A DNA stretch of 64,000 nt from a virus (IMGVR_UViG_3300011337_000669), one strand, 5' to 3'; numbered from the stretch's first letter, positions 5,578 to 53,317 are shown. The notes: generated by a model from the letters alone, not told the origin. Program-made: numbers and translations.

Positions 5578-5890
5578 AATAATAAAAATGATTTTCTAAT
5601 GCCCCTTTATAGTCTTGTAATGATGGTAGAAGAGGAAATGGAATAATCAATACTGCCCCATCATAAATATTATTTTCAAGACCCCCGAATTGTGGATTCG
5701 CCTGAAGAATTAACCATCCAAACACAGGTGAGTTATAATATTCTTGTGAAACTTTATCTAATCTACTTTTTGCCACTTTATAAATAAATGCCTTATCCGT
5801 TGGTTTTTGAGGCAAAGAAATATATGGGACTACTGTTTGTTCCCCATTAATAATAAAATCACTATATCTATTCCAATATTGATATGCCAT
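5567..5890 (-). CDS. LysM-like baseplate protein (T4 gp53 / P2 GpX-like)
   Basis: RLDKVSQEYYNSPVFGWLILQANP...IYDGAVLIIPFP pattern; 107 aa; baseplate context. Confidence 0.75.
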   Translation of the reverse strand: MAYQYWNRYSDFIINGEQTVVPYISLPQKPTDKAFIYKVAKSRLDKVSQEYYNSPVFGWLILQANPQFGGLENNIYDGAVLIIPFPLLPSLQDYKGALENHFYYYGR

Positions 5891-8800: not shown

Positions 8801-10980
8801 TACTTTCTACATCCTGCAAAAAAAGATTCCAAAATACTATCAATACGAGTCTTATTAATTTCATTACCCAAAACTTTATTAACAATGACATTTAGAACTG
8901 ATGGATGGTCTACAACAATTTTCCATTGAAGAGTTCCAGTTCTCGATGTATTTTTGTAAGTATAAATTGGTTCAGGTCGACCCAAAAAATCAGATTGATT
9001 CCAGTTTGTGGATACGCTTTCAGTAAATGTCAATCCATAAGGTGGAAACCACATAACTCTACCACCATTAGGACCTCTCTCACAAACAGGTAAATCAGAC
9101 GTAGAAAAACCTGGAGTACTAGATGTTCTCCATGCCAAGTTTTCCAATGAGAACATATATTTCTTTGCAACCGCATTGTTCACGGTTCCAATTATATTTG
9201 TGGAATCCTGACCACCTTCTTGTTTATTTGGGGCTATGTTTAAGTTATATGTCTTATCAAGAACGGAATACGCAAATCTTCTTCCTTCAGTTGTAATACC
9301 ATCTGTTTTTTGTAAATCGTTATATTGTAAGTATGGTAAATCTTTGGCAAACACACGACAATATTCTGTACCAACTTCTTGGCCAATAGCACCGACATAT
9401 TTATAAACTCTTGAACCTTTAGTAAGTTCTTTATATCCATCATGGAATACTTTACTTACTTGGTCTATTGCATTTCCTACGTGTTGAAGACGTTTACCTC
9501 CTTGTGGTTGGCTATCAATTAATCTTTGTGTGTCATCAAGTATCGAACCTTGTCTGAATTCGTTGTTTACTGATTCGGTATCAACATAAGATGAGGCCAG
9601 ATTCGAAAGGGCTGAATCTGATGATGCGGGTATAATCTCACCACCAATACCTACTTTCTTACCAGCGTTACCTTTATACTTTGGTGAAACCCAAGTGAAA
9701 CCACCTTCGATTCCACCTCCATTACTGTAGGTAGGACCGTTCGCTCCCAATCTAATAGATCGACTTGGTCCTTCATATAACTGTGCCAACTCTGAAGGTC
9801 CATAAACTGGTGATTGTTGTTCAACCCCAAATTGATTAACGGGTACATCTCCAACAGGAGAAAATACTTGGGAAGGGTTGGAAGTTATACTTCCAACATA
9901 AAAATTACTATTGTCTGATACAGTACCCAATAGAGCTCCTCCTACTCTTTGGAAAAAGTTTCTTGGAAAATTTGGTTTGTATCTATTGAAATCTATGTTT
10001 TTGAACAATCGAGACCTTTGTCCCGCTCCCATGTTATTGAACATGATTTGAGAACCAGTCTCTCCTCCACCCATTAACCTATTAACAAACTTACCAACAC
10101 CACTTCTTCTAAAAGCGTTGGAAATTTGTTGTATCGTCGTTGGTTGTCCTAAAGTCGTATTTGGGTCAAAATATGAACCTGGTATAGGTGAAACAGGTAA
10201 TATACTTCCTCCCAATCTTAGTGCAAAGTTTGCTGCGGCAAGTATTGGGTTTGCAGTTACTGTAATGGTATAAACAGGTTCTATGATAGGTACCACACCT
10301 GTCAAAATGTTAACAAGGTCAGTACCACTACTAACATTAAGGATGTTTGCTCTTCCTAAAGTATCTTGTCGTATCTGCGCAGCAATTCTTTGTTCAAACT
10401 CTCTTCTCAAAGTTTGAGCACCTAAACGAGCAATAAATGAATCTTGACTCAATAAACCATTATTTCCACTTGGATCAGGGGACAATAATATTGATACAGG
10501 AGTATAATTAGAGGATACAAATGTTGTTGGATATGGTTGATTGTTGGAAGTATTCGTTGTAATCGGCCTATTTAACGAACCAAAAAACTCAGCACTATCT
10601 AATGGAAGTTGGTTTCCATTTGAAAAAACGTTTAGAGGTTTCCACTTTTGAGATTCTGGTAACGATTGACCTACAATATTTGCGTCTTGGTATCCGTATT
10701 CTCCCTCATTTGATTTTGTATTTAATAATGATCCAGGGTCAGGTACTTGTTCATAACCACCCTCATTACCATATTGGTTCAGTGGATATAGTTTGTTTGC
10801 AAAAGATGGTACATCAATTAATTGATCGGGACTATCTTGTACAGAAGTATCTGACTGAATATATTCAGTATTAATAGCTTGGGTTGGTCTATTGGGAGCC
10901 TTAGCATATGGAGTTAAGTTCCTAACAATAAGTTTCTTTCTAAACCCATCTGAATTTACAAAATCTAACGGACTTGCCAT
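5890..10980 (-). CDS. Baseplate tube-initiator-like protein (two gp48/gp54-type tube domains) with an internal OmpA-like domain
   Basis: WFPPYGLTFTESVSTNWNQSDFLGRPEPIYTYKNTSRTGTLQWKIVVDHPS and FGAPPVLVLRVGDFYNTKIIPDGLSITYE...QPMIANISMNFKFVGG tube-like motifs; FYFGND...YNKELSDRRIKSMIKFF...FGE...RR OmpA-like motifs. Confidence 0.65.
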   Translation of the reverse strand: MASPLDFVNSDGFRKKLIVRNLTPYAKAPNRPTQAINTEYIQSDTSVQDSPDQLIDVPSFANKLYPLNQYGNEGGYEQVPDPGSLLNTKSNEGEYGYQDANIVGQSLPESQKWKPLNVFSNGNQLPLDSAEFFGSLNRPITTNTSNNQPYPTTFVSSNYTPVSILLSPDPSGNNGLLSQDSFIARLGAQTLRREFEQRIAAQIRQDTLGRANILNVSSGTDLVNILTGVVPIIEPVYTITVTANPILAAANFALRLGGSILPVSPIPGSYFDPNTTLGQPTTIQQISNAFRRSGVGKFVNRLMGGGETGSQIMFNNMGAGQRSRLFKNIDFNRYKPNFPRNFFQRVGGALLGTVSDNSNFYVGSITSNPSQVFSPVGDVPVNQFGVEQQSPVYGPSELAQLYEGPSRSIRLGANGPTYSNGGGIEGGFTWVSPKYKGNAGKKVGIGGEIIPASSDSALSNLASSYVDTESVNNEFRQGSILDDTQRLIDSQPQGGKRLQHVGNAIDQVSKVFHDGYKELTKGSRVYKYVGAIGQEVGTEYCRVFAKDLPYLQYNDLQKTDGITTEGRRFAYSVLDKTYNLNIAPNKQEGGQDSTNIIGTVNNAVAKKYMFSLENLAWRTSSTPGFSTSDLPVCERGPNGGRVMWFPPYGLTFTESVSTNWNQSDFLGRPEPIYTYKNTSRTGTLQWKIVVDHPSVLNVIVNKVLGNEINKTRIDSILESFFAGCRKYDIYELAKLYSNVNPNDLFELQQAITSKEMSREQIIYTRGTIESGAFSPNGYDVPVAQSGGGGNTDLDFKKYVQLGFYFGNDYPKPKTEVNYTEEYVRYIGEKPEYATKSNASETATFFDTVVTPNYDVINQFAIELGKQLEVNTQGTVTIDIDSSCSAPATQGYNKELSDRRIKSMIKFFAENPATSKYVANQRLLVKPQNAFGENTNAEPLVSKTTSAPYTLPFDTGKRVNCTDKDVNTVGGDTQAGSKDIYTVPAMACRRSFISNIKSTLNNPQTGPNTQSIPGGQTNPNSGSGTVPVLIGNVVTQTVTEPVIEQRWEPRDNITKRVVRALLSECDYFEVIKETTPMVFDNLKDKLKFFQPSFHSITPEGLNSRLTFLQQCMRPGDTIPTVKQDGETQTLNYNKDASNTSFGAPPVLVLRVGDFYNTKIIPDGLSITYEGLDINPEGIGVQPMIANISMNFKFVGGSGLKESVDKLQNALTFNYYANTEIYDDRADATDIESSRILDQIFLAGEVPPPIPGINNGAPNNGQDNNSTIGNILSNVTDTSGNTTGILSYSTFMNKVVSTTQTYFTNIVNKSKESVNQYNNAVRQQWMLERNYTKGNFEINTDDVILFGKPNNVEKRFDTIFGELVKNITDNTEGFIEYISDPSKNLSPKLIRTIKQNYSNFVSRKRGSFENAISTITQSLVNEEQNYLQTLGRLNTILYSPVSSSNGTDGFQAKNGPVTIYVTSGTTDVHKSSTSSNTYLELVQDTAKIQDDIKKFNTVIERKTKFIYPATSTEYEGVLVYKTINGKSNEVTVQEVFKPFSTNPQFSSQPFRRVYMIVSDDVIDEKKYETFKQELIGNIIGNQSLLGNGSVDIEAIFDTYWTKTVRPVFLEENNITKSFIENLEKTDLKNYLIYTPFDSNKQRNFTFTSVDPSGPSEKQTKENLIKGLANTTNQNTNVLTWNDLNGNLPNAYISKAKLN

Positions 10981-16258: not shown

Positions 16259-19200
16259 TTAGATATTTTCGAACGAAGCTCCTGTTGGAGTGATAAAGAA
16301 TTCGATATCGATGAATTCTAATGCCTTCGTTGGTTTTAAGTATATCTTACCTGTTAATGTATTTCTATCTAAGTCTTCAGGTGTTGAAGAAACTGTTACT
16401 CTGAAGTCATAAAGACCTCTGTCTCTTCTGATTGAATCTAAGATAGGGTTAACACTATCTAAGAATTGTTGTCTAACGATTTGGTCGTTTTGTTCGAACA
16501 ATAATCTTACAGCTACTGCTGAAATTAACTTTCTTGCTTGAAGTAACAATCTTCTTACGTTCAATCTGTTAAGTGCGGTATCAGCAACTTGTAAAGTTTT
16601 GTTACCCCAAATTACAGTTCCTACATCAGAGAAAGTTGCGATAGGGTTAATTCTACCTTGATACAATGTATCTCTATCTTCCTGAGTCAGTTTAACTCTT
16701 GCCTTGATTGAGTTCACAAGACCTCTTGTGTAACCCGCTGATGCGAACCAAGGGAATGCAATGTTATCTGTCAATGCTAAGTTTCTACAAACTTCACCTG
16801 TCGCAGGTAAGTAAATTTGTGTATTATTAACAGTATCTCTTGTAAGAATCCAAGGATAGTAAGTTGCAGTGTAGTTAGAATCAATTCCTGTGTTATCCAA
16901 GTTATCAACTGCTTCTTGAGAATAAATGATATCTTGAGGATTAGTAGCATCAGGAGTATACATGTTGTAATCAGGAGTAGTTGCAATGTAAACTGAATCT
17001 GCTCTTGAGAATTGTACCATGTCGATAGCTTCTTCTACAAGGTTAGAGTTGTTTACATAATCAATACTTGATGTTGCGAATACGTTGATGTTAGTTGATT
17101 CAGGATTTGCGAATGTCAAGATACCAAGTAAGTAAGCATAGTAGTCGGTGTTTGCAAAATCTTGAGTATTGTTTTGAACTACAATTCTTTTGAATAGACC
17201 ATCACCAGTTGCATTTGGATATCTTGTTGAAGCGGATGCTCCTGCCAAGTAACCTGCAGCTCCTAATTGGAATCTATCTTGATTAGTTCTAAACTCTCTA
17301 TAGATATCCCATCCATCAAATCCACCCGCAAAACATACTGTATATTTTCTTGAGTAAATAAAGTAGTAAGGGTTTTCTTGAGTTTCAGGATCAGTTGTGA
17401 AGTTTGCTACACCACATTCAAAAGCAGTTTGACCACTAGTTAAAAACGAATTAGCAATTGTTACAACAGTAGCACCTGAATCCATATGGAAACCTTTACT
17501 TAAGTAATTCCAAGATGAACCATCAACAGGTACTGGAGACGCAATCCAGTTCAATGGATTTTGTGTTCCTTTATATTGTAAGAATGAATCATCAACCCCA
17601 AATTGACTTGAGAAACCTAAATAACTTCTTCTCACAATGTCACCTGAAGATTCAACAACGTCAGTCGGTGCTCCGAAAGGAGGATTATAAATTACTTCAC
17701 CAGGGAAATAATATTTTGTTTTGAAAATTGGAACTGGTGAAGGGTTCGTTACTGATGAGTATTCTCTTTGAGTATACCCGTAGAAACCACAAGGAATTGC
17801 ATCAATTGGTGCTTCATCCGCCAATTCAATCATTATATATCGTGAAATCAAAGCGTATTCACCATCAGTAGAACCTATTTTCTTAGCAACAAAGTTGTTA
17901 GAAGATGGGTCCATGTTACAGTTAGTAAATTTCTCAATAACAACTGGATTTGCATCGGTGTCGAAGAAATTTCTTACCAATACGTCAAACGTCATATTAT
18001 TAAAAGATAAATTAGCAATTGAAACTTTCACCTCAGTGTTTGCTGCGTTACCGTCAGAAATTGAAACAAATTTGAATAAGTTATAAACTTTATTACCTCT
18101 TAATTCAGAAACTAAGAATGGTGTACTTGGTGCTTTATATTGTGTTACGTTATAAGCGATTGATGTTGGGTCTTGACTTCTTGCGTCTGGTAGATTAATT
18201 AAATTACAACTTAAACCACGAATATATCCTTGGTTATAAGCGTAATTCAAAGTATTAGGGTAAATCTCTTCAACATAAACAGGAACCTCGTTTCTTGATT
18301 TACCGAAGTTATCAACACCAAGAACTTTAGTGATGAACTTAGAAGACGATGCCGCCATTGAAGTCTCAAAAGAGAAATTGTCTCCGTCTTTTGTTACACC
18401 TGAAATTAAGAATGATTCAAAAGGAGATTGAGTAACACCCGAGTATTGTCCACTACAATTCAAAATTAAATCTGATAATGTGTTAACTTCATAAATCGGC
18501 CCGTGGTTGTCACTTGTAGAACTATTAGTGTATAAAGATATACCTCTTGAACGTAAAGTCGCAACAACCATGTTGTTGTATTCTGAATACGCAGTTCCTG
18601 AGTAATTGTAAACACTTCCAGATATTGTACCTGAGAATGTTGAAGATGCTCCCGAAGTTAATGAAGAAACGTAATAGAAGAATGAATATCCGGAATATGC
18701 GTTACCTGATGTAATATCAAAGTTAGCATAATACCATGGGTCATTCGCGTCAGATGATAAGTCGTTAGTCGCAAGATTAACTGTATCACATCCATATTCA
18801 TTTATTACGTTTGAATAAGTTGCTGTCAAGTCATAAAAGTCAGATTCAGGCATCGCTCCATAAACAACCGCAGTATTAGCGGATAAAGAAGGAGTATCCA
18901 TGATATTGTCAAGGTTACTTGTGAAATCTAATCCTAAAGTTGATGTACTACCATCAGACAATCTATATTGAGTGTTAAAGTTTGCAAGAACTTGCGGAGG
19001 TAATGCCCCACCTGTAAATGTTACAGTATTTCCTGAAGATGAACCTGAGAAATTTGCCGTCCATGTAGTTCCAGTCGCAGGATTAAGACCGATAGTTAAC
19101 GGGTCAACGTTTGCGGTTACTTTAATACTCCAAGAAGGTCCGGCATCATAACCTGATAGACCTAATACTCTTGTTACAAAAAGTTGATTAGATTGTTGTA

Positions 19201-19459
19201 AATATGATTTTGCAATATATGCCGCCTCATATTTCGGAATTTGTGTGTTTATAAATTTTGTAGGTTCAGTCCCCCCAAAATATGCTTGAAACTCATCGTA
19301 GTTTGTGATAAAAATTGGTTCGAATGCGGGACCTTTAATTGTTTCTCCCACTAAACCTAATGTAGTTACACCTACACTTTGAGCTACAAATGATAAGTCA
19401 GTTTCAGACGTATATACTCCAGGCGATACGTATACCTTTTGATTTACTTGTGTTGCCAT
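16259..19459 (-). CDS. Contractile tail sheath protein (T4 gp18-like)
   Basis: VSPGVYTSETDLS N-terminus; FPWFASAGYTRG, RDTLYQGRINPI, IWGNKTL, LNVRRLL, LFEQND, PTKALEFIDIEF C-terminal motifs. Confidence 0.95.
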   Translation of the reverse strand: MATQVNQKVYVSPGVYTSETDLSFVAQSVGVTTLGLVGETIKGPAFEPIFITNYDEFQAYFGGTEPTKFINTQIPKYEAAYIAKSYLQQSNQLFVTRVLGLSGYDAGPSWSIKVTANVDPLTIGLNPATGTTWTANFSGSSSGNTVTFTGGALPPQVLANFNTQYRLSDGSTSTLGLDFTSNLDNIMDTPSLSANTAVVYGAMPESDFYDLTATYSNVINEYGCDTVNLATNDLSSDANDPWYYANFDITSGNAYSGYSFFYYVSSLTSGASSTFSGTISGSVYNYSGTAYSEYNNMVVATLRSRGISLYTNSSTSDNHGPIYEVNTLSDLILNCSGQYSGVTQSPFESFLISGVTKDGDNFSFETSMAASSSKFITKVLGVDNFGKSRNEVPVYVEEIYPNTLNYAYNQGYIRGLSCNLINLPDARSQDPTSIAYNVTQYKAPSTPFLVSELRGNKVYNLFKFVSISDGNAANTEVKVSIANLSFNNMTFDVLVRNFFDTDANPVVIEKFTNCNMDPSSNNFVAKKIGSTDGEYALISRYIMIELADEAPIDAIPCGFYGYTQREYSSVTNPSPVPIFKTKYYFPGEVIYNPPFGAPTDVVESSGDIVRRSYLGFSSQFGVDDSFLQYKGTQNPLNWIASPVPVDGSSWNYLSKGFHMDSGATVVTIANSFLTSGQTAFECGVANFTTDPETQENPYYFIYSRKYTVCFAGGFDGWDIYREFRTNQDRFQLGAAGYLAGASASTRYPNATGDGLFKRIVVQNNTQDFANTDYYAYLLGILTFANPESTNINVFATSSIDYVNNSNLVEEAIDMVQFSRADSVYIATTPDYNMYTPDATNPQDIIYSQEAVDNLDNTGIDSNYTATYYPWILTRDTVNNTQIYLPATGEVCRNLALTDNIAFPWFASAGYTRGLVNSIKARVKLTQEDRDTLYQGRINPIATFSDVGTVIWGNKTLQVADTALNRLNVRRLLLQARKLISAVAVRLLFEQNDQIVRQQFLDSVNPILDSIRRDRGLYDFRVTVSSTPEDLDRNTLTGKIYLKPTKALEFIDIEFFITPTGASFENI

Positions 19460-20779: not shown

Positions 20780-20953
20780 TTATTTATTGTCTAAATCTTC
20801 AGAGTTATCATGTCCACATTTGTGACAAGTGTACGGGTCATCCCCCCCATCAGATAATTCCCATGACCAACCACAATTATCACAGATAACCTCACCATTG
20901 GTGATTACTTCCATAATTTTATTTAATTGTGATTCTGTTATAATGTAATTCAT
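20780..20953 (-). CDS. Small zinc-ribbon protein (57 aa) with N-terminal ITESQL motif
   Basis: MNYIITESQLNKIMEVITNGEVICDNCGWSWELSDGGDDPYTCHKCGHDNSEDLDNK; TAATG coupling to the upstream gene. Confidence 0.7.
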   Translation of the reverse strand: MNYIITESQLNKIMEVITNGEVICDNCGWSWELSDGGDDPYTCHKCGHDNSEDLDNK

Positions 20954-21468
20954 TATATTCCTCTAAATTCATTCTCACTCACATAGTTGGCGATAATTGT
21001 TCTGTAAAAAGGCTTGTATCCACCGTATGTATGTTTATTGTCTGATTTCACATAACCATCGTCATTAACTACATAGTATCTAACTCGGTCCTCAGATTCA
21101 TAGTAACCAATATAATCTCCCAAGAATATTTCAACCCCCATGTCTTCGAGAGTTTTTTGGTAAATACTAAACTGCATGTTACCAGGTTCTTTTAGTTCAA
21201 CTTTCGAAGTACCAATAAATTTAGTTGTAGGCGCATTGACTTTGACTAACCCTTTTAACTCCACAGGTGCTAAAAATTGAATTCCATCTTCCAAAACTTC
21301 ACCATAAACATCATCAGTTTTGGTCTTTCGTCTATCTATACGATAAAGAACTACGGTGAAATTCATATCACCAACCAACCATTCTTCACCCATACCAATA
21401 TCTAAACTATAATCTTCAGCCCCGAAGAACTTACCTAATCTTGTTATTGGAACTAACTTTTCTGCCAT
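20953..21468 (-). CDS. Neck / head-completion protein (T4 gp14-like)
   Basis: VVLYRIDRRKTKTDDVYGE...GDYIGY...YYVVND; neck/tail context. Confidence 0.6.
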   Translation of the reverse strand: MAEKLVPITRLGKFFGAEDYSLDIGMGEEWLVGDMNFTVVLYRIDRRKTKTDDVYGEVLEDGIQFLAPVELKGLVKVNAPTTKFIGTSKVELKEPGNMQFSIYQKTLEDMGVEIFLGDYIGYYESEDRVRYYVVNDDGYVKSDNKHTYGGYKPFYRTIIANYVSENEFRGI

Positions 21469-23295: not shown

Positions 23296-23347
23296 AATAA
23301 TTTTGTGAATATTCACACTTTTACCACATTTGTGGATATTTATTATT

Positions 23348-23509
23348 ATGGGAAGAAAATTGAAAACAGAAGAAGAAAAAAAAACTAAAGTATCGGTTGC
23401 TCTTGAACCAGAATTATTATCATATTATAGAAACCTTCATATTAATTTATCGTCACTTGTTAATAAATTACTCAAAGATTATAGAGAAGATGGGAAGAAA
23501 AATTTGTAG
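23348..23509 (+). CDS. RHH (CcdA/CopG-like) protein, cassette copy 1
   Basis: MGRKLKTEEEKKTKVSVALEPELLSYYRNLHINLSSLVNKLLKDYREDGKKNL; overlaps the HNH gene by 20 nt. Confidence 0.8.
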   Translation: MGRKLKTEEEKKTKVSVALEPELLSYYRNLHINLSSLVNKLLKDYREDGKKNL

Positions 23510-24158
23510 TAAATGTAAAATTGAAAAAGATATTTGTAATTTCAGTCGTAAAAAATCAAACCAATCAGAACTTCGTTCAGAATGTAAAGAATGTAATAGA
23601 ATAATCAGTAAAAAATATAGAGAGGAAAATAAAGTAAAAGAAATAAATAGAAGTAAAAAATACAGAGAAGAAAATAAAGAAAAACTCAAAAAAACCTATA
23701 TCGATAATATAGATTATTTCTTATCTTATAGACAAAAAAATAAAGAGTACTTCGAAAATTATAATAAAATCTACTACGATAATAATCGAAGTAAAATTAT
23801 CGAATATAAGAAAGAGTATCAGAAGAAAAAAAGAGATTCAAATCCAACATATAACTTTATTTGCAACATTAGAGGTCGGGTTTATCATTATTTGAAATTA
23901 AAAAACATTACAAAAAAAAATAAAACTTTCGACATTGTTGGGTGTTCCCCTACTTTCCTCAAAGAGTACATTGAAAAAAAATTCACCAAGGATATGTCTT
24001 GGGATTTGGTGGGAAAAGAAATACATATTGACCACATAATACCATTATCTTCAGCAAAAACAGAGGAAGAAATTTATAAATTATGTCATTATACAAATCT
24101 TCAACCCCTGTGGGCTGAAGATAATCGGAAAAAATCTAACAAGTTGGATTATTTATAG
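23490..24158 (+). mobile_element. HNH homing endonuclease with N-terminal CxxC...CxxC finger, copy 1
   Basis: MGRKICSKC...CKEC; HIDHIIPLSS...HYTNLQPLWAEDNRKKSNK. Start 23490 chosen by alignment with the two paralogs. Confidence 0.85.
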
Positions 24159-24174
24159 TAAATTAAAGCCAACA

Positions 24175-25713
24175 ATGACAAAAATACAACAGAAGATTGA
24201 ACAACTTGAATTACAAATTGTAGAACAAAAAGTGACGAGAGAAAAAGAGTTTTTAATCACAGAAATGAAAAAAATTGGAATAGAAAAACTACCTTATTCC
24301 TACACTGCTCTCAAACAATTTATTGACCCCGAAACAATGGAGATACATTATTCGAGGCACTACAAAACTTATGTTGATAAATTAAATGATGCTCTCTCCA
24401 AAAAAAAGTACGGAGATTTGGAGTTAGAACAAATAATCAAAACAATAAGTCGGTTTGACAAAACAATCAGAAACAACGCGGGTGGAGCATTTAACCATGC
24501 TTTGTTTTGGAATTTTTTAACTCCCGAACCAAAAAGACTCAAAGGAGATTTACAGAAAAAAATTATTAAAGAGTTCGGTAGTTTTATTTTATTCAAGAAA
24601 AAATTCGAAGAGATTGCCAAAGAAAGATTTGGTTCAGGATGGGTTTGGTTAGTTTTGACAGGGAGAAATAGTTTGAAAATTATGTCTACACCAAACCAAG
24701 ATAATCCTTTGATGAATATTATTGAAGGTGGAGGATTTCCGTTATTAGGTTTGGATTTATGGGAACACGCATACTATCTCAAGTATAAAAACAAAAGGGA
24801 TGAATATATTTCTAACTTTTGGAAAGTGGTGAATTGGGAATTTGTTTCCAAACTTTATGATATGAAAACAGAAACAAAACTTTTGGAATCTGTTGAAATG
24901 AAAAAAATTATCAAAGAGTTCAAAGAACCAAAATTTTGTGATTCAAATGAAATTACTTTTTATAAGGAATTAATCAACAATCCAAAGATAAAAAAATTAT
25001 ATCAAGATGGTGTCACTGATGTTTTGAAAAAAGTATTTCATGAATATTGGGTGGAGAGTAATGAGAAAGAAATGTCAGGATTTTATGGTATTGAATCCGA
25101 CAGTGCTAGATCTGTTTTGAATAACTTGAATACCAACTTCAATACTTTTTGTTTATTAACAAAAGCAATCAATAGACAAATAGAGTCAATTAACAAACCG
25201 AACAAAAAATTCGATTTTTCCATCAAAGAGAAACGAACAATTAGTGAGGTCAATAGACTTATAGCGGCATTAGATTATTTCAAAAAAGAAATTTTTACAA
25301 AAAACAACGAAGATTTTGTTAACATCATTAGTGTTTTGTTAAAACTTTGGGATAGAGGACAAAAATCTGAAGACAAAGTTCTTTCTAAAATAGAACAATA
25401 TTTCGGTAAAGATTCTTCAGTTGAAAAGATAGGTGGACATGGCCAAAAGAGTGACGCATTCAAAGGTATTGATTTGATTGTTAATGTTGGTGGTAAAAAA
25501 CACACCGCTCAAGTGAAACCTTTTTCTTCTATAAAAAAAGAAGGAGACAAAATCACAGTTTTGAATACAGGCAACGTTAAACCATATAACGTAGATTGGA
25601 TGATATTTATAAACACTAAGTCTAATAAAATTCTAATTATCGAGAATAATCCAATTCAGAGTCGTGGACAATATGTTTTCGACGCTTCTTCTCTTATTCA
25701 CGAAATAGATTAA
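24175..25713 (+). CDS. sod: Mn-type superoxide dismutase fused to a ~280 aa C-terminal domain with a PD-(D/E)xK-like motif
   Basis: EIHYSRHYKTYV, GGAFNHALFW, FGSGWVWL, NQDNP and DLWEHAYY retain the four metal ligands; the C-terminal part has SDAFKGIDLIV...TAQVKPF. Confidence 0.85.
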   Translation: MTKIQQKIEQLELQIVEQKVTREKEFLITEMKKIGIEKLPYSYTALKQFIDPETMEIHYSRHYKTYVDKLNDALSKKKYGDLELEQIIKTISRFDKTIRNNAGGAFNHALFWNFLTPEPKRLKGDLQKKIIKEFGSFILFKKKFEEIAKERFGSGWVWLVLTGRNSLKIMSTPNQDNPLMNIIEGGGFPLLGLDLWEHAYYLKYKNKRDEYISNFWKVVNWEFVSKLYDMKTETKLLESVEMKKIIKEFKEPKFCDSNEITFYKELINNPKIKKLYQDGVTDVLKKVFHEYWVESNEKEMSGFYGIESDSARSVLNNLNTNFNTFCLLTKAINRQIESINKPNKKFDFSIKEKRTISEVNRLIAALDYFKKEIFTKNNEDFVNIISVLLKLWDRGQKSEDKVLSKIEQYFGKDSSVEKIGGHGQKSDAFKGIDLIVNVGGKKHTAQVKPFSSIKKEGDKITVLNTGNVKPYNVDWMIFINTKSNKILIIENNPIQSRGQYVFDASSLIHEID

Positions 25714-25731
25714 CAAAGATATTTATATTAT

Positions 25732-26859
25732 ATGTCAGCAATACCAGAACCAGAACGAAGTAGGATATACACTAGAATTAAACACCAATTAGGTGCTCCA
25801 CTCAGAAGTGTAGAACTTGAAGACGAAATGTTGGATTCACTAATGGAATTAGCAATAGGGGATTATGAAGAATATATCCTTCAATGGTTAATTGATTCTC
25901 AGTGGGTTAATCTTGTAAACTTAAACATGAACGAGAGGTCCGTAGCTAGAGCATTAGTCACGAGGACAATGGATTTCGAACAACAATTCAGTTACTCATA
26001 CTCCAAAATTGTGGGTCTCCAAACCGTAGGTCCGTGGGTTCTAAAGAAAGATTATTTCATTTTAAGCGCAAACACACAAACTTATGAAATACCTGCAGGA
26101 CGAGAGGTTAATGAACTATTATGGTTTTCTAATCAAGCCTGGAACGCATTTGGTTTGGGGGGAGTCGGTGGATTTGGTATGGGTGGTGTTGGATTAGGTG
26201 CCAGTGAAGCGGGTTATGCTCAAATGGGCTATCAAGGATCTTATTTTATGATGTCAGGGTTTGATTACCTAATTAGAATGCAAGAGGCTAACATTCTTAA
26301 CAGAATTCTTGGAGGTTCATTGACTTATAGAATTACAGGTCTTCCTGATGGTAAAAAACTTATTCACTTATACAATACCCCTGGTGGAAGATTCAATTGG
26401 AACAATTATAGTTTATATCAAGGGAAGGCAGTTTGGTATTGGTATTATGATGTTGAACCAGATAGTAGAGCTGATTGTTTAAAAAACAATCCTGATATTA
26501 TCAAACTTCCTACTGACGTACCAATCGAAGAACTTACTTGGACAGACATAAATGTACCAGGTCAACAATGGGTTAGACGATGGTTTACCGCGTATTGTAA
26601 AGAAACATTAGCGAGAGTGAGAGGAAAATACTCAGGTAACCTTAAGACTCCTGATAGTGAAATTACAATGGACTATCAGAGTTTGTTAACTGAAGCTAAA
26701 GATGAAAAAACTAAATTGATTGAAGAATTAATTGGAGCTGAAGGATGGTTAACAAGATTAAGACCTGAAAAAGTAATGGAAAGAGAAGCATTAATCGCAG
26801 AAAACCTAAATAAACAAATGAAATTTAGAGCAATGCCTCGACAAATTTACGTAATATAA
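25732..26859 (+). CDS. Neck / head-tail adaptor protein (T4 gp13-like)
   Basis: RIKHQLGAPLRSVELEDEML...QQWVRRWFTAYCKETLARVRGKYSG...EAKDEKTKLIEEL. Confidence 0.8.
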   Translation: MSAIPEPERSRIYTRIKHQLGAPLRSVELEDEMLDSLMELAIGDYEEYILQWLIDSQWVNLVNLNMNERSVARALVTRTMDFEQQFSYSYSKIVGLQTVGPWVLKKDYFILSANTQTYEIPAGREVNELLWFSNQAWNAFGLGGVGGFGMGGVGLGASEAGYAQMGYQGSYFMMSGFDYLIRMQEANILNRILGGSLTYRITGLPDGKKLIHLYNTPGGRFNWNNYSLYQGKAVWYWYYDVEPDSRADCLKNNPDIIKLPTDVPIEELTWTDINVPGQQWVRRWFTAYCKETLARVRGKYSGNLKTPDSEITMDYQSLLTEAKDEKTKLIEELIGAEGWLTRLRPEKVMEREALIAENLNKQMKFRAMPRQIYVI

Positions 26860-26860
26860 T

Positions 26861-27196
26861 ATGGCAATTATTAAATCTATATCATCCAAAAGAATAATTA
26901 GAGGTGAAGTTATCAACGCTTCCGAAATTTCTGTAGTTTCAGAAACCACTTACAGAACTAACGGAGAAAGTTGTGTTATTGTAAGAGGTGTTGCTCAATC
27001 AGTAATCATATTAGATTCAACTAACACAGACCACGTGGTTGTTAAAGCAATGACTAACCTCACCATACTTCCTGATGTCGGGCTAATCGACGAAGAATAT
27101 GATGAGGTTGTTGTTGATAAATTTGCCTGTATTGAATTCAGATTTGTTGGTGGTAACTGGTATGTGTTGAGCTCAGATGGACTTAAACAATCATAA
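26861..27196 (+). CDS. Hypothetical protein (probably structural, beta-rich)
   Basis: 111 aa ORF directly following the neck gene. Confidence 0.6.
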   Translation: MAIIKSISSKRIIRGEVINASEISVVSETTYRTNGESCVIVRGVAQSVIILDSTNTDHVVVKAMTNLTILPDVGLIDEEYDEVVVDKFACIEFRFVGGNWYVLSSDGLKQS

Positions 27197-27224
27197 AAAA
27201 AAGTGGATATAATCCACTTTTTTT
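27195..27224. terminator. Bidirectional intrinsic terminator between convergent genes
   Basis: A8-GTGGAT-ATA-ATCCAC-T7. Confidence 0.8.
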
Positions 27225-27822
27225 ATGTCACTCTATTTCCCTTTTTCATATTATCCTTTCCCCACAATGGTTGTAGATTAGTATAATTAGATAGTCTGAT
27301 AATATCTTCTTCATTTTTTGCGGAAGATAATGGAATTATATGGTCAATATGCCATCCGTAAAATCCCTTGTTATCCCAGGTCATACCTTCACTAAATTTA
27401 TCTTCTAAGTATTTTTTCAAAAATGTTGTATCACACCCTAAATAATCTATCGAGCGATTTTTTTTAATAAGATTATTATCTCTAAAAATATCTTTTAACC
27501 TATTTCGATAATTTGTAATTAATTTAAATAATATATCTTTGTTATATCTTTCTTTATTTTTCTTTGACTGATAATTCCTAATTTTATCTTTGTTTTTATC
27601 TCTCCATTTTTTATTATATTCGTATAATCTTCCCGGATTTTTTTTAAGAAATTTTTTTTTAATGTCGTCAGATTTTTCCTGATTATTTTTTCTCCAATTC
27701 ACACTGTTCTTATTTTGACATTTTTTACAGTTAGACCTTAATCCATCATGAGAATCCCCATTTCTATAAAATTCACAAACATTTTTTTCCTCGTTACACT
27801 TACTACAAATTTTTGTTTCCAT
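27223..27822 (-). mobile_element. HNH homing endonuclease, copy 2
   Basis: METKICSKC...CKKC; WHIDHIIPLSS...YTNLQPLWGKDNMKKGN. Confidence 0.85.
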
Positions 27823-27964
27823 TTTTTCTATAATCTTTAAGTAATTGACTAACTAATGAAGATAAATTAATATGAAGCCCTCGATAATAAGTTAATAGTT
27901 CAGGGTCTAACGCCACTGATACTTTAGTTTTTTTTTCTTCTTCCGTTTTTAATTTTCGTCCCAT
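27803..27964 (-). CDS. RHH protein, cassette copy 2
   Basis: MGRKLKTEEEKKTKVSVALDPELLTYYRGLHINLSSLVSQLLKDYRKNGNKNL; 45/53 identical to copy 1; 20-nt overlap with the HNH gene. Confidence 0.8.
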   Translation of the reverse strand: MGRKLKTEEEKKTKVSVALDPELLTYYRGLHINLSSLVSQLLKDYRKNGNKNL

Positions 27965-28015
27965 ATTAATAAATATCTACAAATATATCAAAAGTGTGGT
28001 AATTCACAATTTTAT

Positions 28016-30796
28016 TTACATAAATTTTTCCCACCCTTCTTCAGCTAAGTCATACATATAATCAGGACTTAGACCTCTTTTTTCCCAATACTTGAGTTCC
28101 AACTCAGTAATATCCAATACGTCTTCTTTTAACCTGTCTTGGTCTCCATCACTTAATGGATGACCATTAATAAGTTCACACTGAGATGTTGTGAAGATAC
28201 CTCTTTCTGATGGGTTATTAACAATTAATCCATTTCTTACCTCATCCTTGAAAACAACCATTAAAGGTTCAATTCTTTTGTTAAATGTCGCAATTGCTCT
28301 TGGAACATTATAGTCCCCTGTTAAATCAGGGTTATTGTCTAAAATATCTTTATCCAACATATAACAATTAATCATAACTCCATCCGTAATGGGTTTTGTT
28401 TTGACCCCATTAAACTCATTAAGGGCATTAATATCTTTAATTTGTTTTGGAGTCATCTTCTGAACATCACCTTGTGATGATTTAGTCCCATTATTAACAT
28501 ACATAATAACATCACCTAAACTCACATTCAAATTATTTTGTATTGCCAATTCCAAATATGCCATCCGGCTCATACTATTACCCGATTTAGTTTTGGTGTT
28601 TAATCTTTTTTTATATTCTTCAATAGTCAATTTAACCTTGGCTCTTTGGGCTATCTTACTTAACGGAATCTTTTTATCATAAATGGTTTGAAGATACTCA
28701 TAATAGTATTCAACGAATGCTTTCCCATCCCCTTGTAATAACATCTTAATCCCCTTATCTAAGAATGTCTCAATATAAATCGGAAGTTTTTTTGACTTGA
28801 TACTGTTACCTGTAAGTTTGATTTTACCCTTCGCATCCATAACCGCATAGTTCTTACGAGCCAAGTTGATACATGATGGCCAAACACCATCGGTATCCAA
28901 AGCCATTTCACCTCTCATGAATATATCGTTATACTCCGCAACATCCGCCTCAGGCCCGAAATATTCTTTACCCAACTTAACCTTCCAATTCAAACCACGT
29001 CCAACGTATTTACGATTCTTAGCATCCTCAGGTGTAGAAAAGTTCACACCGTCAGTATCCATTACCAACGGAACATATCCTTTCGACATAAAAAACTTAA
29101 TCATCTGACGAAGATATTGTCTTCCAGTGCAGGTAATCTGCTCGCCCATGTACATGTCACCCCAAGCATAAACCTGAGGGGCGGATAACGCACCGAACAT
29201 CGAGTTGATAAAAATTTTAATCGGTAATTGTTTGTTACCATAGGACTCTGACTTTTTACGATCGGTCTCATAATATTGCTCCGCCAAGTTCTTGTACTTG
29301 ATACGAGTATCTCGGAACCACTTTAACATACCTTTCATCGCGCCTGTTACGTCACAGTCAGGAAATACGTCGTGCACCAACTGAATGGAGGGGTATAGAG
29401 ACGAGAAGTCAAGCTTCAGTACGTCCTTACTATATCCCACCTTAAGTAGTCGTGAGAGACCTCCTACGAAGTCAGTCTTGGATTCCTTGGCAGGAATTGC
29501 TATGTTGTGTTTATATGACCACGCCATCATTAGCATCTTCCACAAAGTTGCCGTACCCATAGTGGATACTCTCTCATAGGTAGTCGGAATCATCGCCGCA
29601 AGTAAGAATGAACCTTGATTGAATTCTTGGTCAACTTTCAAGGTTTCGTCCAAGTCATCGTCAAGATATCTTTCAACCAAGTTGTCTCCCGTTACTTTAA
29701 GATAAACATCACTTCTACTCTCACAAATCTCATCTATCTTAGGGTCTTGTCCAACCTTACGGTAGTTTCCATTCTGTGTATTCAACCAAAACTCTTCTTT
29801 CTTGGTATAGAATGGAGCAATGTCCAAGTGGTCAATATAAACTCGGTCAGGGGCTTCAGCATTGATATACTGTGTAATATATTTCAAACCCGCAGACTTA
29901 ATACTTGAATTGATTGCTTGTGCTCTACGAACCGCATGAATAATATCAATAACATTATATCCCCAAATTGAAGTTTGAGTATATAACTCAACTTCGTTGG
30001 CAAGTTTTAACATACCTTCTTTTCTTGTGAATGAATGGTCGGGGTGTAGGGAACGACAAATCTTCTTGGGGTCAATACCCAAGATTTTACATCGTTCAAA
30101 TATCCAATGCCAGTCGAAGTTTGCTGAATTGTATCCACCAATAATGCTTGGTTTCAACTCATTAATGATACTAAAAAACTCTATGATGGCACCTCGTTCT
30201 TGAGATTCGTCAATACATTCAATTACTTTATGGTATCCTTTGTTTGTTTTAATTCCAATCATGAATATACGACCGTCTTTGGGTTCCAATGCGGTCGTTT
30301 CCAAGTCAAATACCAATCGGGTTACTTGATTATAATCCTCAAATCCTTTGAACAATCTTTTTTCTTTTGAAACAAGATATTGTTCAACAGGAGACAAAAT
30401 AATTATTTTATCTTTTGTTCTCTCACCCCACGGATCACATCCACCTTCTCTAAAAAATTGCACAAGTTCACGGTAACCTTTAAGAGATTTGACCATAAAG
30501 GTCATACCCTTTTCTAATCTTTTATTACCGTATGTTTCAAGTTTATCAATCATGATACCATGTTTGGTCATGGCTTCCTTCTGTGCGGCTTTTGAACCTC
30601 CATAGAAGTTAATATCCCGTAAGTCGCCAACCCAAGCGAATGGCGTAAAATTGTCTTTACGAATTTCTTTACCTTTGCCTGGAATTTCCTTGATCTTGAA
30701 GATAGTGTTGGAAGCGTAGTCGAACTCGATGGCGACTATAAATTCTTCGGGATCGTTTCCATGTAGGAACGATTCAATTTCTTTTTCTGTAAACAT
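28016..30796 (-). CDS. polB: Family B DNA polymerase with 3'-5' exonuclease domain
   Basis: Exonuclease motifs FDLETT and YNSANFD; polymerase motif A DFSSLYPS, motif B KIFINSMFG, motif C DTDG. Confidence 0.95.
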   Translation of the reverse strand: MFTEKEIESFLHGNDPEEFIVAIEFDYASNTIFKIKEIPGKGKEIRKDNFTPFAWVGDLRDINFYGGSKAAQKEAMTKHGIMIDKLETYGNKRLEKGMTFMVKSLKGYRELVQFFREGGCDPWGERTKDKIIILSPVEQYLVSKEKRLFKGFEDYNQVTRLVFDLETTALEPKDGRIFMIGIKTNKGYHKVIECIDESQERGAIIEFFSIINELKPSIIGGYNSANFDWHWIFERCKILGIDPKKICRSLHPDHSFTRKEGMLKLANEVELYTQTSIWGYNVIDIIHAVRRAQAINSSIKSAGLKYITQYINAEAPDRVYIDHLDIAPFYTKKEEFWLNTQNGNYRKVGQDPKIDEICESRSDVYLKVTGDNLVERYLDDDLDETLKVDQEFNQGSFLLAAMIPTTYERVSTMGTATLWKMLMMAWSYKHNIAIPAKESKTDFVGGLSRLLKVGYSKDVLKLDFSSLYPSIQLVHDVFPDCDVTGAMKGMLKWFRDTRIKYKNLAEQYYETDRKKSESYGNKQLPIKIFINSMFGALSAPQVYAWGDMYMGEQITCTGRQYLRQMIKFFMSKGYVPLVMDTDGVNFSTPEDAKNRKYVGRGLNWKVKLGKEYFGPEADVAEYNDIFMRGEMALDTDGVWPSCINLARKNYAVMDAKGKIKLTGNSIKSKKLPIYIETFLDKGIKMLLQGDGKAFVEYYYEYLQTIYDKKIPLSKIAQRAKVKLTIEEYKKRLNTKTKSGNSMSRMAYLELAIQNNLNVSLGDVIMYVNNGTKSSQGDVQKMTPKQIKDINALNEFNGVKTKPITDGVMINCYMLDKDILDNNPDLTGDYNVPRAIATFNKRIEPLMVVFKDEVRNGLIVNNPSERGIFTTSQCELINGHPLSDGDQDRLKEDVLDITELELKYWEKRGLSPDYMYDLAEEGWEKFM

Positions 30797-30891
30797 TTTT
30801 CATATACGAGTGGTTTATTGGCTTTCACACTAACGTGAAGTTTACCTTACTCATCGTCTATAAATATAAAAGAAATTTGTGTCTTGTCAAA

Positions 30892-31269
30892 TTAACAACA
30901 AGCAGTTTCGGAAATGAAACTGTCTTGGATGTTGATGTATAGTTCCTCTCGGATTGGAAGAATCAGGTTTCCTTCGTCATTCTTAATCAAGAATTGACCC
31001 TGATATCTACCAGGAGTATTTGTATCTCTTGAACTGAACTTGAAATAAATGTAGTACTCAGGTGCGGCACCTAAAGGTAGAATTAAATTAACGATTTCGC
31101 AAGGTGCTGAAACAATCTTCGGAATTCCCGTTTCCACATCAATCATGGTAAAAAATATTGTCGAGACCTCAAGGTCTTCCATGAGTTGTTGGTAACCTGA
31201 TCGTCCATCTTTTACAACTTGGAGTTTCAAAATTGGTAAGGTAGCCCCTTTTTTAATATACCATTCCAT
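30892..31269 (-). CDS. BppU N-terminal-like (Ig-type) structural protein
   Basis: IKKGATLPILKLQV...SRDTNTPGRYQGQFLI...ILP pattern. Confidence 0.5.
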   Translation of the reverse strand: MEWYIKKGATLPILKLQVVKDGRSGYQQLMEDLEVSTIFFTMIDVETGIPKIVSAPCEIVNLILPLGAAPEYYIYFKFSSRDTNTPGRYQGQFLIKNDEGNLILPIREELYINIQDSFISETACC

Positions 31270-31350
31270 TCTTTTTCTTTATTAATAAATATATAGCACA
31301 TTTGTTTTGATAAAGTGAAACTTTTACTATCTTTCGGATATTTATAAAAT

Positions 31351-31506
31351 ATGGCAAGACCTACAAAATTAGAAGAAGACCGAAAAGTAAAATTTGGTAT
31401 CAGTTTAGACCCCGAAATTTTTAACCGAATGGTTAAAGACAAAATAAAAAAATCTACCTTAATCGAAAAATTACTGAAAGAATATTATGGAAAAAAAGAT
31501 TTGTAG
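31351..31506 (+). CDS. RHH protein, cassette copy 3 (divergent)
   Basis: MARPTKLEEDRKVKFGISLDPEIFNRMVKDKIKKSTLIEKLLKEYYGKKDL; 20-nt overlap with the HNH gene. Confidence 0.75.
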   Translation: MARPTKLEEDRKVKFGISLDPEIFNRMVKDKIKKSTLIEKLLKEYYGKKDL

Positions 31507-32098
31507 TAAGTGTAAAATTGAGAAGGAGGTTTGTGAATTTTATAAAAAAAATAAAAACTCAAACTTATATAGGGGACAATGTAAAAAATGTACGGACATA
31601 ACTTCATCTGTATATAAGAAAAACAATGCCGAAATTATATCTGAAAAATCTAAAAAATTCAGGAAGGAAAACCCTGAAATTAACAAAGAGAAATGTAGAA
31701 TTTATAGGGAAAAAAATCCTAAATCATTCAAAAAGTGGTTAGAAAAAAATAAAGAACATAGAAGAATCTATATAAATAATTATAACCAAAATCCTAAAAA
31801 TAAAATTAAAAATTCTTTGAGGTCAAGAATAAATGAACTGATGAACAAAAAATATGACAACCCAAGAACCATTAATTTGGTCGGTTGTGATTATGATTTT
31901 TTGATAAAATATATTGAGAGCAAGTTCACTGAAAACATGTCTTGGGATAATTACGGATATTATGGTTGGCATTTAGACCACATTATACCTTTATCATCGG
32001 CAAACACTAAAAAGGAAATTTATGATTTATATCATTACACCAATCTTCAACCATTATGGGGGACAGAGAATATGAAAAAAGGGTGTAAAATTGTTTAA
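31487..32098 (+). mobile_element. HNH homing endonuclease, copy 3
   Basis: MEKKICSKC...CKKC; WHLDHIIPLSS...HYTNLQPLWGTENMKKG. Confidence 0.85.
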
Positions 32099-33771
32099 GA
32101 TTCCTTCCTTAAATCACGGGAATAGTGGTCAAAACGGTCATGTTCGGTTGGAGTTAACAATAACAATCCAGGATTCAATTCTCCTTTTTTCAACAGCTGA
32201 TACATATGACTCATCCAGGTTTGTTCGAAAACATGGGCCCAAGTAGTATCTAAAAACATTTTTTGATTACCTGGTCTACTGACAATCTGAGGCCAGTTTG
32301 AGTAATAAATTTCACCTTTAGCATAAGGAACCCCCTTATGTGATAAGACAGCATTAAATTGTGTTTTAGGCGCATTTGGGTCTAAACCAATTTCAGGTAA
32401 TCTTGGTTTATCTGGCCAAAATTCTGTCCTAACATGTTGTGGAACGTTATACCATGACCACTGAGTACCATTATCACCATAAAACTCAGAATAGTTGAGT
32501 TTCAAGAAGTCGAAGTTTTCTTTTTTGATAATTTCTAATGACTTACTATATAAGTTTGGAACATATCGGTTGAATCCATTTCTACAAACTTTACCTTCGT
32601 TTGGATAAAAAAACATGTCATCTTCGAAGAACAAATAATAATCCAAATTTGTTTCATTTTGGAAGTGTTCGGCAATCCATTGCCTTCCCCCGCATATTCC
32701 TAAGTTATCTTTCTTAATATGTTCGAATCCGAATTCTTCACAAATTAGTGAATATTCCTCAGTAGTTGATAAATCACTCGAGTTGTCTAACAAAAATTTA
32801 GTTGTCTTGTTAAGATAATCTTTGTCGTATGCCAACATGGAGTCAATCAAAGTTCTAAATTGTTTCGGACTATTGAACGTGATTACGTAGAGACCTACTT
32901 TGTTGGTGTCCAAGTTATTTACAACTTGTACAGAACTTTCGTTTTTAACCTTGAGGTCATCATTTTTCAAGTCCTCAAAAAATTTACCAAATAATCCATT
33001 CCCTTCGATTTCAAAATAATTGAATAGGTCTGAATGTTTATAGCACATGATGCTGAATATTGATTCTTCAGTACCCATGTATCCTTCTTCTAAAGTGCTT
33101 TTTAACAATCCATAATAAATTCCATTAACATCACCAATTGTGTGTTTAGGACCTCCAAAAAAACCACCTCTTGCAACTTTGGTTACTTTATTACCGGCGA
33201 TGGAATTTAACTTGTTATATTCAAATCCATGAATTTCTCTTTCAGCATCATAAGGAAAACTAACAAATGAAAATTTGGAAATATATTTAGATAAGTTGTT
33301 CAAAACTTTATCGTGAGTAAAATAACCTGGATGTACTGTATTAGTTAATCCACCATCAATCCAAAACATATATTCCGAATTGAATTGGTCCATGATTTTG
33401 GCATCGTGTAATAAAAACATTTTTGACATGACCAAAGGATTGTAGTTTTCCAAACGACTTTGCGTAGATTCCTTTAACCACCCCGCCAAATTATGCCATT
33501 CGGGATTTGTTCTAATTTTTTGAATTAACGGAAAAAATTCAGAGTTGGTAAACCAACTAAGTGGTCGGGTAACGAATTGAGTATTTTCAGTGTTTCTTCT
33601 TTTAAAAACAAATTCTTTTAGTTCTTCATCTCCAAAGATGATTAAGTTTTCCTCTACTTCTAATAGTTTTTCAAACTTGTCTAAATAATGTTGATAAGGC
33701 CTTGACCATCCTTCTGTTAATTCTCCACGACCGATATCCCAAATACCTGTTACTAATGTTATATTACTCAT
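32095..33771 (-). CDS. WlaTC/HtrL-like glycosyltransferase fused to a GT-A-type domain
   Basis: TLVTGIWDIGRG...YNPLVMSKMFLL...YMFWIDGGL...MGTEESIF; C-terminal half has YYLFFEDDM. Confidence 0.7.
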   Translation of the reverse strand: MSNITLVTGIWDIGRGELTEGWSRPYQHYLDKFEKLLEVEENLIIFGDEELKEFVFKRRNTENTQFVTRPLSWFTNSEFFPLIQKIRTNPEWHNLAGWLKESTQSRLENYNPLVMSKMFLLHDAKIMDQFNSEYMFWIDGGLTNTVHPGYFTHDKVLNNLSKYISKFSFVSFPYDAEREIHGFEYNKLNSIAGNKVTKVARGGFFGGPKHTIGDVNGIYYGLLKSTLEEGYMGTEESIFSIMCYKHSDLFNYFEIEGNGLFGKFFEDLKNDDLKVKNESSVQVVNNLDTNKVGLYVITFNSPKQFRTLIDSMLAYDKDYLNKTTKFLLDNSSDLSTTEEYSLICEEFGFEHIKKDNLGICGGRQWIAEHFQNETNLDYYLFFEDDMFFYPNEGKVCRNGFNRYVPNLYSKSLEIIKKENFDFLKLNYSEFYGDNGTQWSWYNVPQHVRTEFWPDKPRLPEIGLDPNAPKTQFNAVLSHKGVPYAKGEIYYSNWPQIVSRPGNQKMFLDTTWAHVFEQTWMSHMYQLLKKGELNPGLLLLTPTEHDRFDHYSRDLRKES

Positions 33772-53000: not shown

Positions 53001-53317
53001 TTAGTAGGAGTATTGGTTGGAGTCTCCGTAGCAGTGCTAGTTGGAGTTTCAGTAGGTGTTGGTGTTGGAGAGGTTTCAGTAGGTGTTACCGTTGGAGTTG
53101 GTGTCGTAGTAGGTGTGGGACCTAGTACTACAACAGAATACATCGTAGCATAAGTAGGTACATAACAGTTGTAAGTTCCGAAATAATAATCCGAAATATA
53201 ATTAAATGGGAAAGTTTGTACCCCCAAATCTATTGTTCCACCAGATATTGGTAGATACGTTACGTTGGTTGTTAAACCACTCAAATTATCACTTAATATT
53301 CTTACACCTATTGCCAT
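50084..53317 (-). CDS. Mucin-like protein (1077 aa) with C-terminal LamG domain
   Basis: About 500 aa TP tract; [13 protein letters not shown]...TIMAWVRP...WQMVTIT...[25 protein letters not shown]. Confidence 0.85.

Follow-up and report, generated by a model that had tools for sequence, protein, structure and literature searches.

Phage genomes are rich in homing endonuclease genes, and it is only partly understood how these leave their carrier unharmed; the known solutions to their control rely either on the signals of the host gene or on the nuclease itself. In a 64,000-nt stretch of DNA from an uncultured freshwater phage (IMGVR_UViG_3300011337_000669; 33.5% G+C), referred to below as the window, three HNH nuclease genes are each preceded by a small overlapping gene assigned to the ribbon-helix-helix (RHH) superfamily, and comparison with related phages shows that promoter, RHH gene and nuclease gene behave as one insertion. 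Each unit is probably a free-standing homing endonuclease cassette, in which the RHH protein shuts down the promoter it is expressed from and translational re-initiation in the overlap yields a low level of nuclease. Control appears in this case to be packaged as a portable head, composed of promoter, candidate operator, RHH micro-gene and overlapping start, that fronts at least three unrelated nuclease folds.

The free-standing seg and mob genes of T4-like phages are likewise intergenic nuclease genes that are present or absent between related phages (Edgell et al., 2010, PMC2988022). Between their starts and the upstream open reading frame (ORF) there is an overlap of 11-24 bp, which has been read as low-efficiency re-initiation, and several layers keep their expression low; for segC (20 bp), mobA (23 bp) and mobC (24 bp) a re-initiation window of about seven codons has been discussed (PMC2988022). 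The upstream ORF of these genes is, however, a resident phage gene and no regulator is carried, whereas here promoter and RHH gene travel with the nuclease. Transcription of I-TevI, the homing endonuclease of the T4 td intron, is shut off at an operator over its own promoter (PMC2988022), as would also be the case here. The repressor of I-TevI is the nuclease's own DNA-binding domain, whereas in the window a separate protein of 51-53 aa would repress.

RHH proteins bind as dimers, reading a repeated operator through an antiparallel beta-sheet that is inserted in its major groove. Minimal repressors of this kind (45-53 aa), with operators that overlap promoter elements, include Arc and Mnt of phage P22 and CopG of plasmid pMV158, although these control phage immunity or plasmid copy number and not a nuclease cassette. 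The type II antitoxins CcdA, ParD and RelB also have an N-terminal RHH and are encoded by a small gene that comes first and overlaps the gene of a potentially harmful enzyme; the window RHH proteins differ in having neither a C-terminal toxin-binding region nor a cognate toxin family, and the folds of their partners are mutually unrelated. An RHH micro-protein, also named Arc, binds and represses a promoter of the IS605 family (Moon et al., 2026, bioRxiv 10.64898/2026.09.24.754181). It resembles the present case in being an often unannotated micro-protein of a selfish element that overlaps a neighbouring gene, and in acting on a promoter that drives a homing-like retention nuclease. The IS605 element, however, is a transposon of cellular genomes with TnpA and TnpB, without HNH, LAGLIDADG or PD-(D/E)XK homing nucleases and without a phage context, and the likeness noted here between its Arc and the window RHH is one of fold and arrangement. 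A full-text search of the literature brought up no account of phage homing endonucleases that are coupled to an RHH gene; the parts are of known kinds, and their combination as a portable head among nuclease families appears to be new.

Layout of the cassettes and their two genes

The window was compared with related viral contigs, which are given L-numbers (e.g., L007 and L078), and further cassettes were collected from IMG/VR by searches with the RHH protein, the family alignment and the leader pattern, yielding 219 cassettes, of which 126 are unique. The features of the three window cassettes are listed in Table 1. An initial annotation had proposed, at these places, three small ORFs that each share exactly 20 nt with an HNH gene and take a TAG-TAA double stop from the Cys-Ser-Lys codons of the nuclease, and this arrangement was confirmed: the nuclease is in the +1 frame, and the overlap reads TGT AGT AA(A/G) in the nuclease frame and TAG TAA in the RHH frame. 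The length of the overlap, then called invariant, is constant in the three window copies but not across the family, where overlaps of 23, 17, 14, 11 and 4 nt and gaps of 43 and 141 nt also occur. In a first set of complete loci it is either 20 nt (53) or 23 nt (17), accounting for 70/70, and in a third set 11, 20 or 23 nt; where the Cys-X codons give no stop in the RHH frame, the next TAA serves. The start of RHH gene 1 is taken as the conserved ATG at 23348 and not the TTG upstream of it at 23330.

Table 1. Coordinates of the three RHH-HNH cassettes, their insertion sites and associated features in the window
Feature	Coordinates	Strand	Details
Site 1			Between SNF2 helicase gene (ends 23295) and SOD-fusion gene (starts 24175); empty in 66/69 relatives
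Cassette 1 insert	~23307-24147	+	Junctions from comparison with empty sites of L079/L078
Leader/promoter 1	23304-23347	+	Palindrome TGTGAATATTCACA at 23304-23317; class-A hexamer TTCACA at 23312-23317; -10-like GATATTTAT at 23335-23343
RHH gene 1	23348-23509	+	53 aa; class A, beta-strand TKVSVAL; CcdA 25.6 bits; family profile E 3e-31
HNH nuclease gene 1	23490-24158	+	222 aa; phrog_1035 E 2e-17; zinc finger, variable helical middle, HNH motif
Site 2			Between polB and ORF 26861-27196, convergent ends; empty in 76/80 relatives
Cassette 2 insert	~27192-28018	-	Junctions from comparison with empty sites of L078/L079
Leader/promoter 2	27965-28015	-	Box region 27995-28009; GATATTTAT at 27969-27977
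RHH gene 2	27803-27964	-	53 aa; class A; CcdA 24.3 bits
HNH nuclease gene 2	27223-27822	-	199 aa; phrog_1035 E 1.5e-18; AlphaFold model pLDDT 91
Terminator-like hairpin	27196-27224	-	13 pairs followed by a T run, directly after HNH gene 2
Site 3			Between ORF 30892-31269 (divergent) and HtrL_YibB-family gene 32095-33771 (convergent); empty in 55/64 relatives, filled in 9
Cassette 3 insert	~31296-32098	+	Junctions from comparison with L078/L079
Leader/promoter 3	31296-31350	+	Class-B hexamer GTGAAA at 31315-31320; GATATTTAT at 31337-31345
RHH gene 3	31351-31506	+	51 aa; class B, beta-strand VKFGISL; RHH_3 17.1 bits; family profile E 2.9e-29
HNH nuclease gene 3	31487-32098	+	203 aa; phrog_1035 E 2e-18
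Other genes with (A/G)TATTTAT upstream (examples)	5890-10980, 16259-19459, 20953-21468, 25732-26859, 41863-42921, 43173-47846, 50084-53317, 53901-55865, 55918-56739		

Alignments also bore out the claim that copies 1 and 2 have closely related heads and more divergent nucleases: their RHH proteins are identical at 45/53 positions (85%) and their leaders of ~55 nt align closely, while the mutual identity of the three HNH proteins is only 44%. RHH copy 3 is 43% identical to copy 1. Copies also exist outside the window, the RHH 2 protein being identical in L013 and L156 at the same site, HNH 2 having a 97% identical copy in divergent phages (the L007 group) and HNH 3 having 90% identical copies in L052 and L053 at the same site. 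Within the window the RHH and HNH family profiles match these three loci only, and the composite leader motif is found at three places in 64 kb where 0.26 would be expected, which, together with the recurrence of the arrangement in the 219 cassettes, shows that the pattern is not a product of chance.

That the small ORFs missed by the ORF track are genuine genes of RHH type is supported by both selection and family membership, and the survey upstream of homologous nucleases elsewhere found them conserved throughout the collected cassettes. The RHH frame is open in all 219, four of the other five frames being closed in nearly all of 155 loci, and dN/dS outside the overlap is 0.13 for class A (660 pairs) and 0.17 for class B (227 pairs), which is indicative of purifying selection. 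RHH copies 1 and 2 pass the cut-off of the Pfam family CcdA (PF07362; 22.4 bits), with a match to profile positions 1-35 of 71 that covers the DNA-binding part only. Copy 3, searched alone, matches RHH_3 below the cut-off of 21.6 bits and joins the family by profile; weak matches were also obtained to BrnA in Pfam and to an Arc-like phrog (E 0.025). In a monomer model, for which the pLDDT is only 70, an extended segment (~12-19) is followed by two helices (21-30 and 34-48), and the protein ends 5 residues past helix 2. A Foldseek search of this model gave no match in the PDB, so the fold assignment is based on the topology together with the sequence; searching PDB sequences by profile likewise returned only designed repeat proteins, considered spurious, and no match to Arc, Mnt or CopG. 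On this basis the small ORFs are assigned to the RHH (Arc/MetJ/CopG) superfamily. A profile search of 1.8 billion representative sequences detected 270 clusters of the RHH family; among the best 150 of these, nearly all of 45-85 aa, there is no in-frame RHH-nuclease fusion of ~250 aa.

The nuclease genes can be placed in the HNH (beta-beta-alpha-Me) family from their sequences and a structural model, with the catalytic residues present. Matches to the Pfam HNH profile are weak (17.8-18.3 bits, below the cut-off), those to phrog_1035 have E 1e-17 to 1e-18, and the HNH 2 model has weak Foldseek matches to Cas9 HNH domains and Hpy99I. A conserved N-terminal zinc finger is followed by a variable middle (~21-120) and a conserved catalytic end; in the numbering of HNH 1 the zinc-finger cysteines C6, C9, C32 and C35 and residues D160-H161, N182 and N191 are invariant in 56 sequences, and all three window nucleases keep the four cysteines and the D-H...N...N catalytic residues. 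Homologues in Flavobacterium phages are without the RHH head. Decayed nucleases are found after intact RHH genes, in the form of an HNH protein cut to 82 aa (L173/L174) or an in-frame stop (L204), a state to be expected of homing elements late in their life cycle.

Mobility and exchange of heads and nuclease bodies

Eighty close relatives of the window phage were identified by the region of the family-B DNA polymerase gene (polB) and have the same gene order, and the empty-site comparison carried out among them (Table 1) upholds the earlier proposal that promoter, RHH gene and nuclease gene form the mobile unit. An empty junction of site 1 was also detected in a lake metagenome contig, at 24149. 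Further support comes from the exchange of complete units by divergent phages: L007 has a cassette that is 95-100% identical to cassette 2, while its flanks are only 65-75% identical, indicating that the cassette has spread horizontally into the same site. At site 2 the sequence TTATG is repeated at both junctions, and the insert supplies the stop codon of polB, which is shortened to ...EKFM (window 28016-28021); where relatives lack the insert, the 3' ends of polB and of the convergent ORF overlap and the polymerase ends ...EEKLMTV (L079:10730-10830). Other insertions of 0.4-1.7 kb were found at or near the same sites (L078:5531-6138, L076:2733-3340, L077:13807-15522 and L128:6495-7038); these match neither the RHH nor the HNH proteins of the window and may be further mobile genes.

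Heads and nuclease bodies are separate modules that are swapped independently of each other. In the comparison of the window with L013, flanks and RHH gene are ~100% identical and identity drops to 40-50% from ~40 nt into the nuclease gene to its end; as the drop is confined to the nuclease, its body has evidently been replaced behind a constant head. Between L035 and L208, the flanks are ~90% and the nucleases 96-98% identical, and the segment from the -35 box to the RHH stop has been swapped as one block, altering both the box and the beta-strand.

Heads with an RHH gene of this family (profile E 1e-19 to 1e-27) also front genes other than those for HNH nucleases, including genes for NUMOD3 and TnsA-like nucleases (RHH overlaps of 14 and 20/23 nt), a LAGLIDADG_3 protein (17 nt; e.g., L400), a C5 DNA methylase with an intein (17 nt; L322:179-2460) and 5'-3' exonucleases. 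The association of one RHH family with unrelated partner genes suggests that the RHH protein acts on something common to all cassettes. The head could also be an exchangeable control module that sets 'immunity classes' of homing elements, the RHH protein silencing incoming or sister cassettes of its own class (as with copies 1 and 2) and copy 3 escaping, and could in addition provide a recombination handle by which heads and bodies are shuffled among phages, but this extension is put forward tentatively and is itself rather doubtful.

Two unusual heads were seen in the collection. The intein of the L322 methylase holds a LAGLIDADG domain, and the protein shares the N-terminal sequence METKI with the products of the HNH genes; it looks as though a resident methylase gene had acquired a cassette's 5' end. 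A 47-aa non-RHH ORF follows the same leader pattern in L367:1348-2167 and L369; it overlaps a NUMOD3-bearing GIY-YIG-like nuclease gene by 23 nt and is rich in the basic YYERNKE-type repeat known from the HNH middle region.

Proposed control by the head and competing readings

In essentially all cassettes GATATTTAT is located 4-7 nt before the RHH ATG (4 nt in leader 1), and ~17 nt upstream of it is a hexamer followed by CTTT. Among the 126 unique cassettes this hexamer differs with the class of the RHH protein: it is TTCACA or ATCACA with the beta-strand TKVSVAL (33/40), GTGAAA with VKFGISL (23/25), ATTC(T/C)A with VKIGVSV (10/11), TTAC(T/C)A with VKVSVAI (8/8) and TAACAA with QSISIAL (4/4). 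This correspondence, together with the L035/L208 block swap, makes the class-specific hexamer at -35 the best operator candidate, and a possible binding site for the RHH protein. The palindrome of copy 1, TGTGAATATTCACA, is not conserved across class A. The motif (A/G)TATTTAT is also found 4-25 nt before many ordinary start codons in the window and looks like a general promoter-like element of the phage; its closeness to start codons suggests very short or absent mRNA leaders in several genes. A Bacteroidota-type promoter (TTTG ... TAnnTTTG), considered as an alternative, fits copies 1 and 2 and was rejected, as it is not conserved in the family.

What is directly supported by these comparisons comprises the genes, the RHH family, purifying selection, presence and absence at the sites, horizontal transfer, the swapping of heads and bodies and the correspondence of box and class, from which we infer binding of the box, repression, a leaderless start, re-initiation and cleavage of empty sites. 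In the proposed sequence of events, the cassette promoter would fire to give an mRNA with a short leader or, since TATTTAT is only 4-6 nt before the ATG, probably one that is leaderless or nearly so, from which the RHH protein would be translated. Ribosomes ending at the RHH TAG/TAA would then re-initiate at the nuclease ATG 20 nt upstream, and with the nuclease translated by re-initiation only, its ratio to the RHH protein would be low and fixed. RHH dimers would bind the class-specific -35 box and shut the promoter after a short burst. No GGAGG-like run that could serve as a Shine-Dalgarno sequence precedes the nuclease ATGs of the three copies, and overlaps of 20, 23, 17, 14 and 11 nt are within the re-initiation window of about seven codons. 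Sequestration of the nuclease start in an RNA hairpin, the situation in T4 I-TevI, was also looked for, and the folds of the three overlaps gave no consistent structure (z = +2.0, +0.55 and -2.4).

If this mechanism operates, nuclease dosage would be independent of the landing place, which would account for cassettes in three differently oriented intergenic sites. An RHH protein acting as repressor would offer a simple model, open to testing, of how the dosage of selfish nucleases can be controlled independently of context, and a set of natural orthogonal repressor/operator pairs. An ORF of ~50 aa that gene callers usually miss would in addition be a marker for mobile nuclease cassettes in metagenomic phages.

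Several observations weigh against self-repressing homing cassettes. The regulator is dispensable in some contexts, as 33/80 of the closest IMG/VR relatives of the HNH nuclease are without an RHH gene and site 1 of L099 holds promoter and HNH gene only. The occurrence of different HNH bodies at one site fits poorly with one nuclease per site. The match of box to class could reflect co-inheritance, there being only some six classes that are related by descent, and the hexamer, being at the -35 place, may be a drifting promoter element. In the leaders of classes A and B the inverted repeats have arms no longer than those in shuffled AT-rich sequence, longer arms being found only in the small classes C and D, and the sharing of TATTTAT with ordinary genes means that the promoter is not cassette-specific.

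The initial annotation had offered a type II toxin-antitoxin-like pair as an alternative, in which the RHH protein would bind and neutralise the nuclease, as CcdA, ParD and RelB do with their toxins, and would also autoregulate. Such a pair would explain why the best Pfam match is to the antitoxin family CcdA, with BrnA as a weak match, and a gene order in which a small RHH gene comes first and overlaps that of a potentially toxic nuclease is what type II systems typically show. It is nevertheless disfavoured and appears very unlikely: the CcdA match stops short of the part in which a toxin-binding tail would lie, and none follows helix 2; the RHH family heads three unrelated nuclease folds as well as a C5 methylase and a 5'-3' exonuclease, and non-toxic enzymes are among its partners; HNH relatives without RHH exist, as given above; and an intact RHH gene persists beside the truncated HNH genes of L173 and L204. 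A complex prediction for an RHH dimer with HNH 2 scored 0.02 and is weighed on neither side. The absence of RHH from many HNH relatives also bears on the idea that the protein serves the nuclease as a helper or DNA-targeting subunit that recognises the homing site or shields the resident genome from being cut. Homing nucleases are modular, with catalytic and separate DNA-binding modules (such as NUMOD3 in relatives), and the RHH is a DNA-binding fold, but near-identical RHH proteins (copies 1 and 2) are found at different insertion sites, HNH bodies that share only 42% identity occur with identical RHH proteins at the same site, and the fusions of RHH and nuclease searched for among the best 150 of the 270 clusters were not found, which together make a subunit role highly improbable.

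The same lack of a ~250-aa in-frame product argues against reading the two ORFs as one gene, expressed as an RHH-HNH fusion protein by a programmed +1 frameshift on the A-run of the overlap. In copy 1 the RHH frame AAG AAA AAT and the nuclease frame AGA AAA ATT would permit a Lys-tRNA to slip by +1, but the A-run is not conserved (many loci having, e.g., ACA AAG ATT), the distance between the genes varies from overlaps of 4-23 nt to the gaps of 43 and 141 nt and every nuclease ORF keeps its own start codon; the frameshift, to which almost no likelihood is attached, was rejected. An RHH protein that serves the phage or competition between phages, with targets at other promoters of the phage itself or of a co-infecting relative (same-class cassettes among them), and connected with the nuclease by linkage only, would be consistent with a TATTTAT promoter type common to many phage genes, with heads that also front resident genes (the C5 methylase and 5'-3' exonuclease) and with the back-to-back arrangement of cassette 3 and the promoter of ORF 30892-31269. 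The class-specific box, however, occurs in the window at the three cassette leaders only, and relatives with empty sites are without the RHH gene, so that no core phage function depends on it; a role of this kind is considered unlikely. Self-repression of a homing cassette continues to be the preferred reading.

Source phage and neighbouring genes

The DNA of the window is without a match in cultured phages, as is the RHH protein by tblastn, and the polB product is no more than 26% identical to those of isolates. The public runs that contain the window stretch come from river, lake and aquifer metagenomes. A 194-nt contig of an estuary RNA library extends across the RHH/HNH junction of cassette 1 (23446-23639), for which DNA carry-over is a possible source. 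No RHH relatives were detected in a pattern-limited scan of one genome per prokaryote species.

The gene downstream of site 1 (24175-25713, + strand) encodes a 512-aa protein with a complete Fe/Mn superoxide dismutase (SOD) at residues 37-226 (Pfam Sod_Fe_N and Sod_Fe_C) and a C-terminal part of ~280 aa without a family match. The protein is 51-96% identical among relatives and is absent in some (e.g., L106 and L107). At site 3, the convergent gene on the - strand encodes a 558-aa protein, the N-terminal half of which matches the HtrL_YibB family, and its stop codon overlaps that of HNH gene 3 on the opposite strand by 4 nt.

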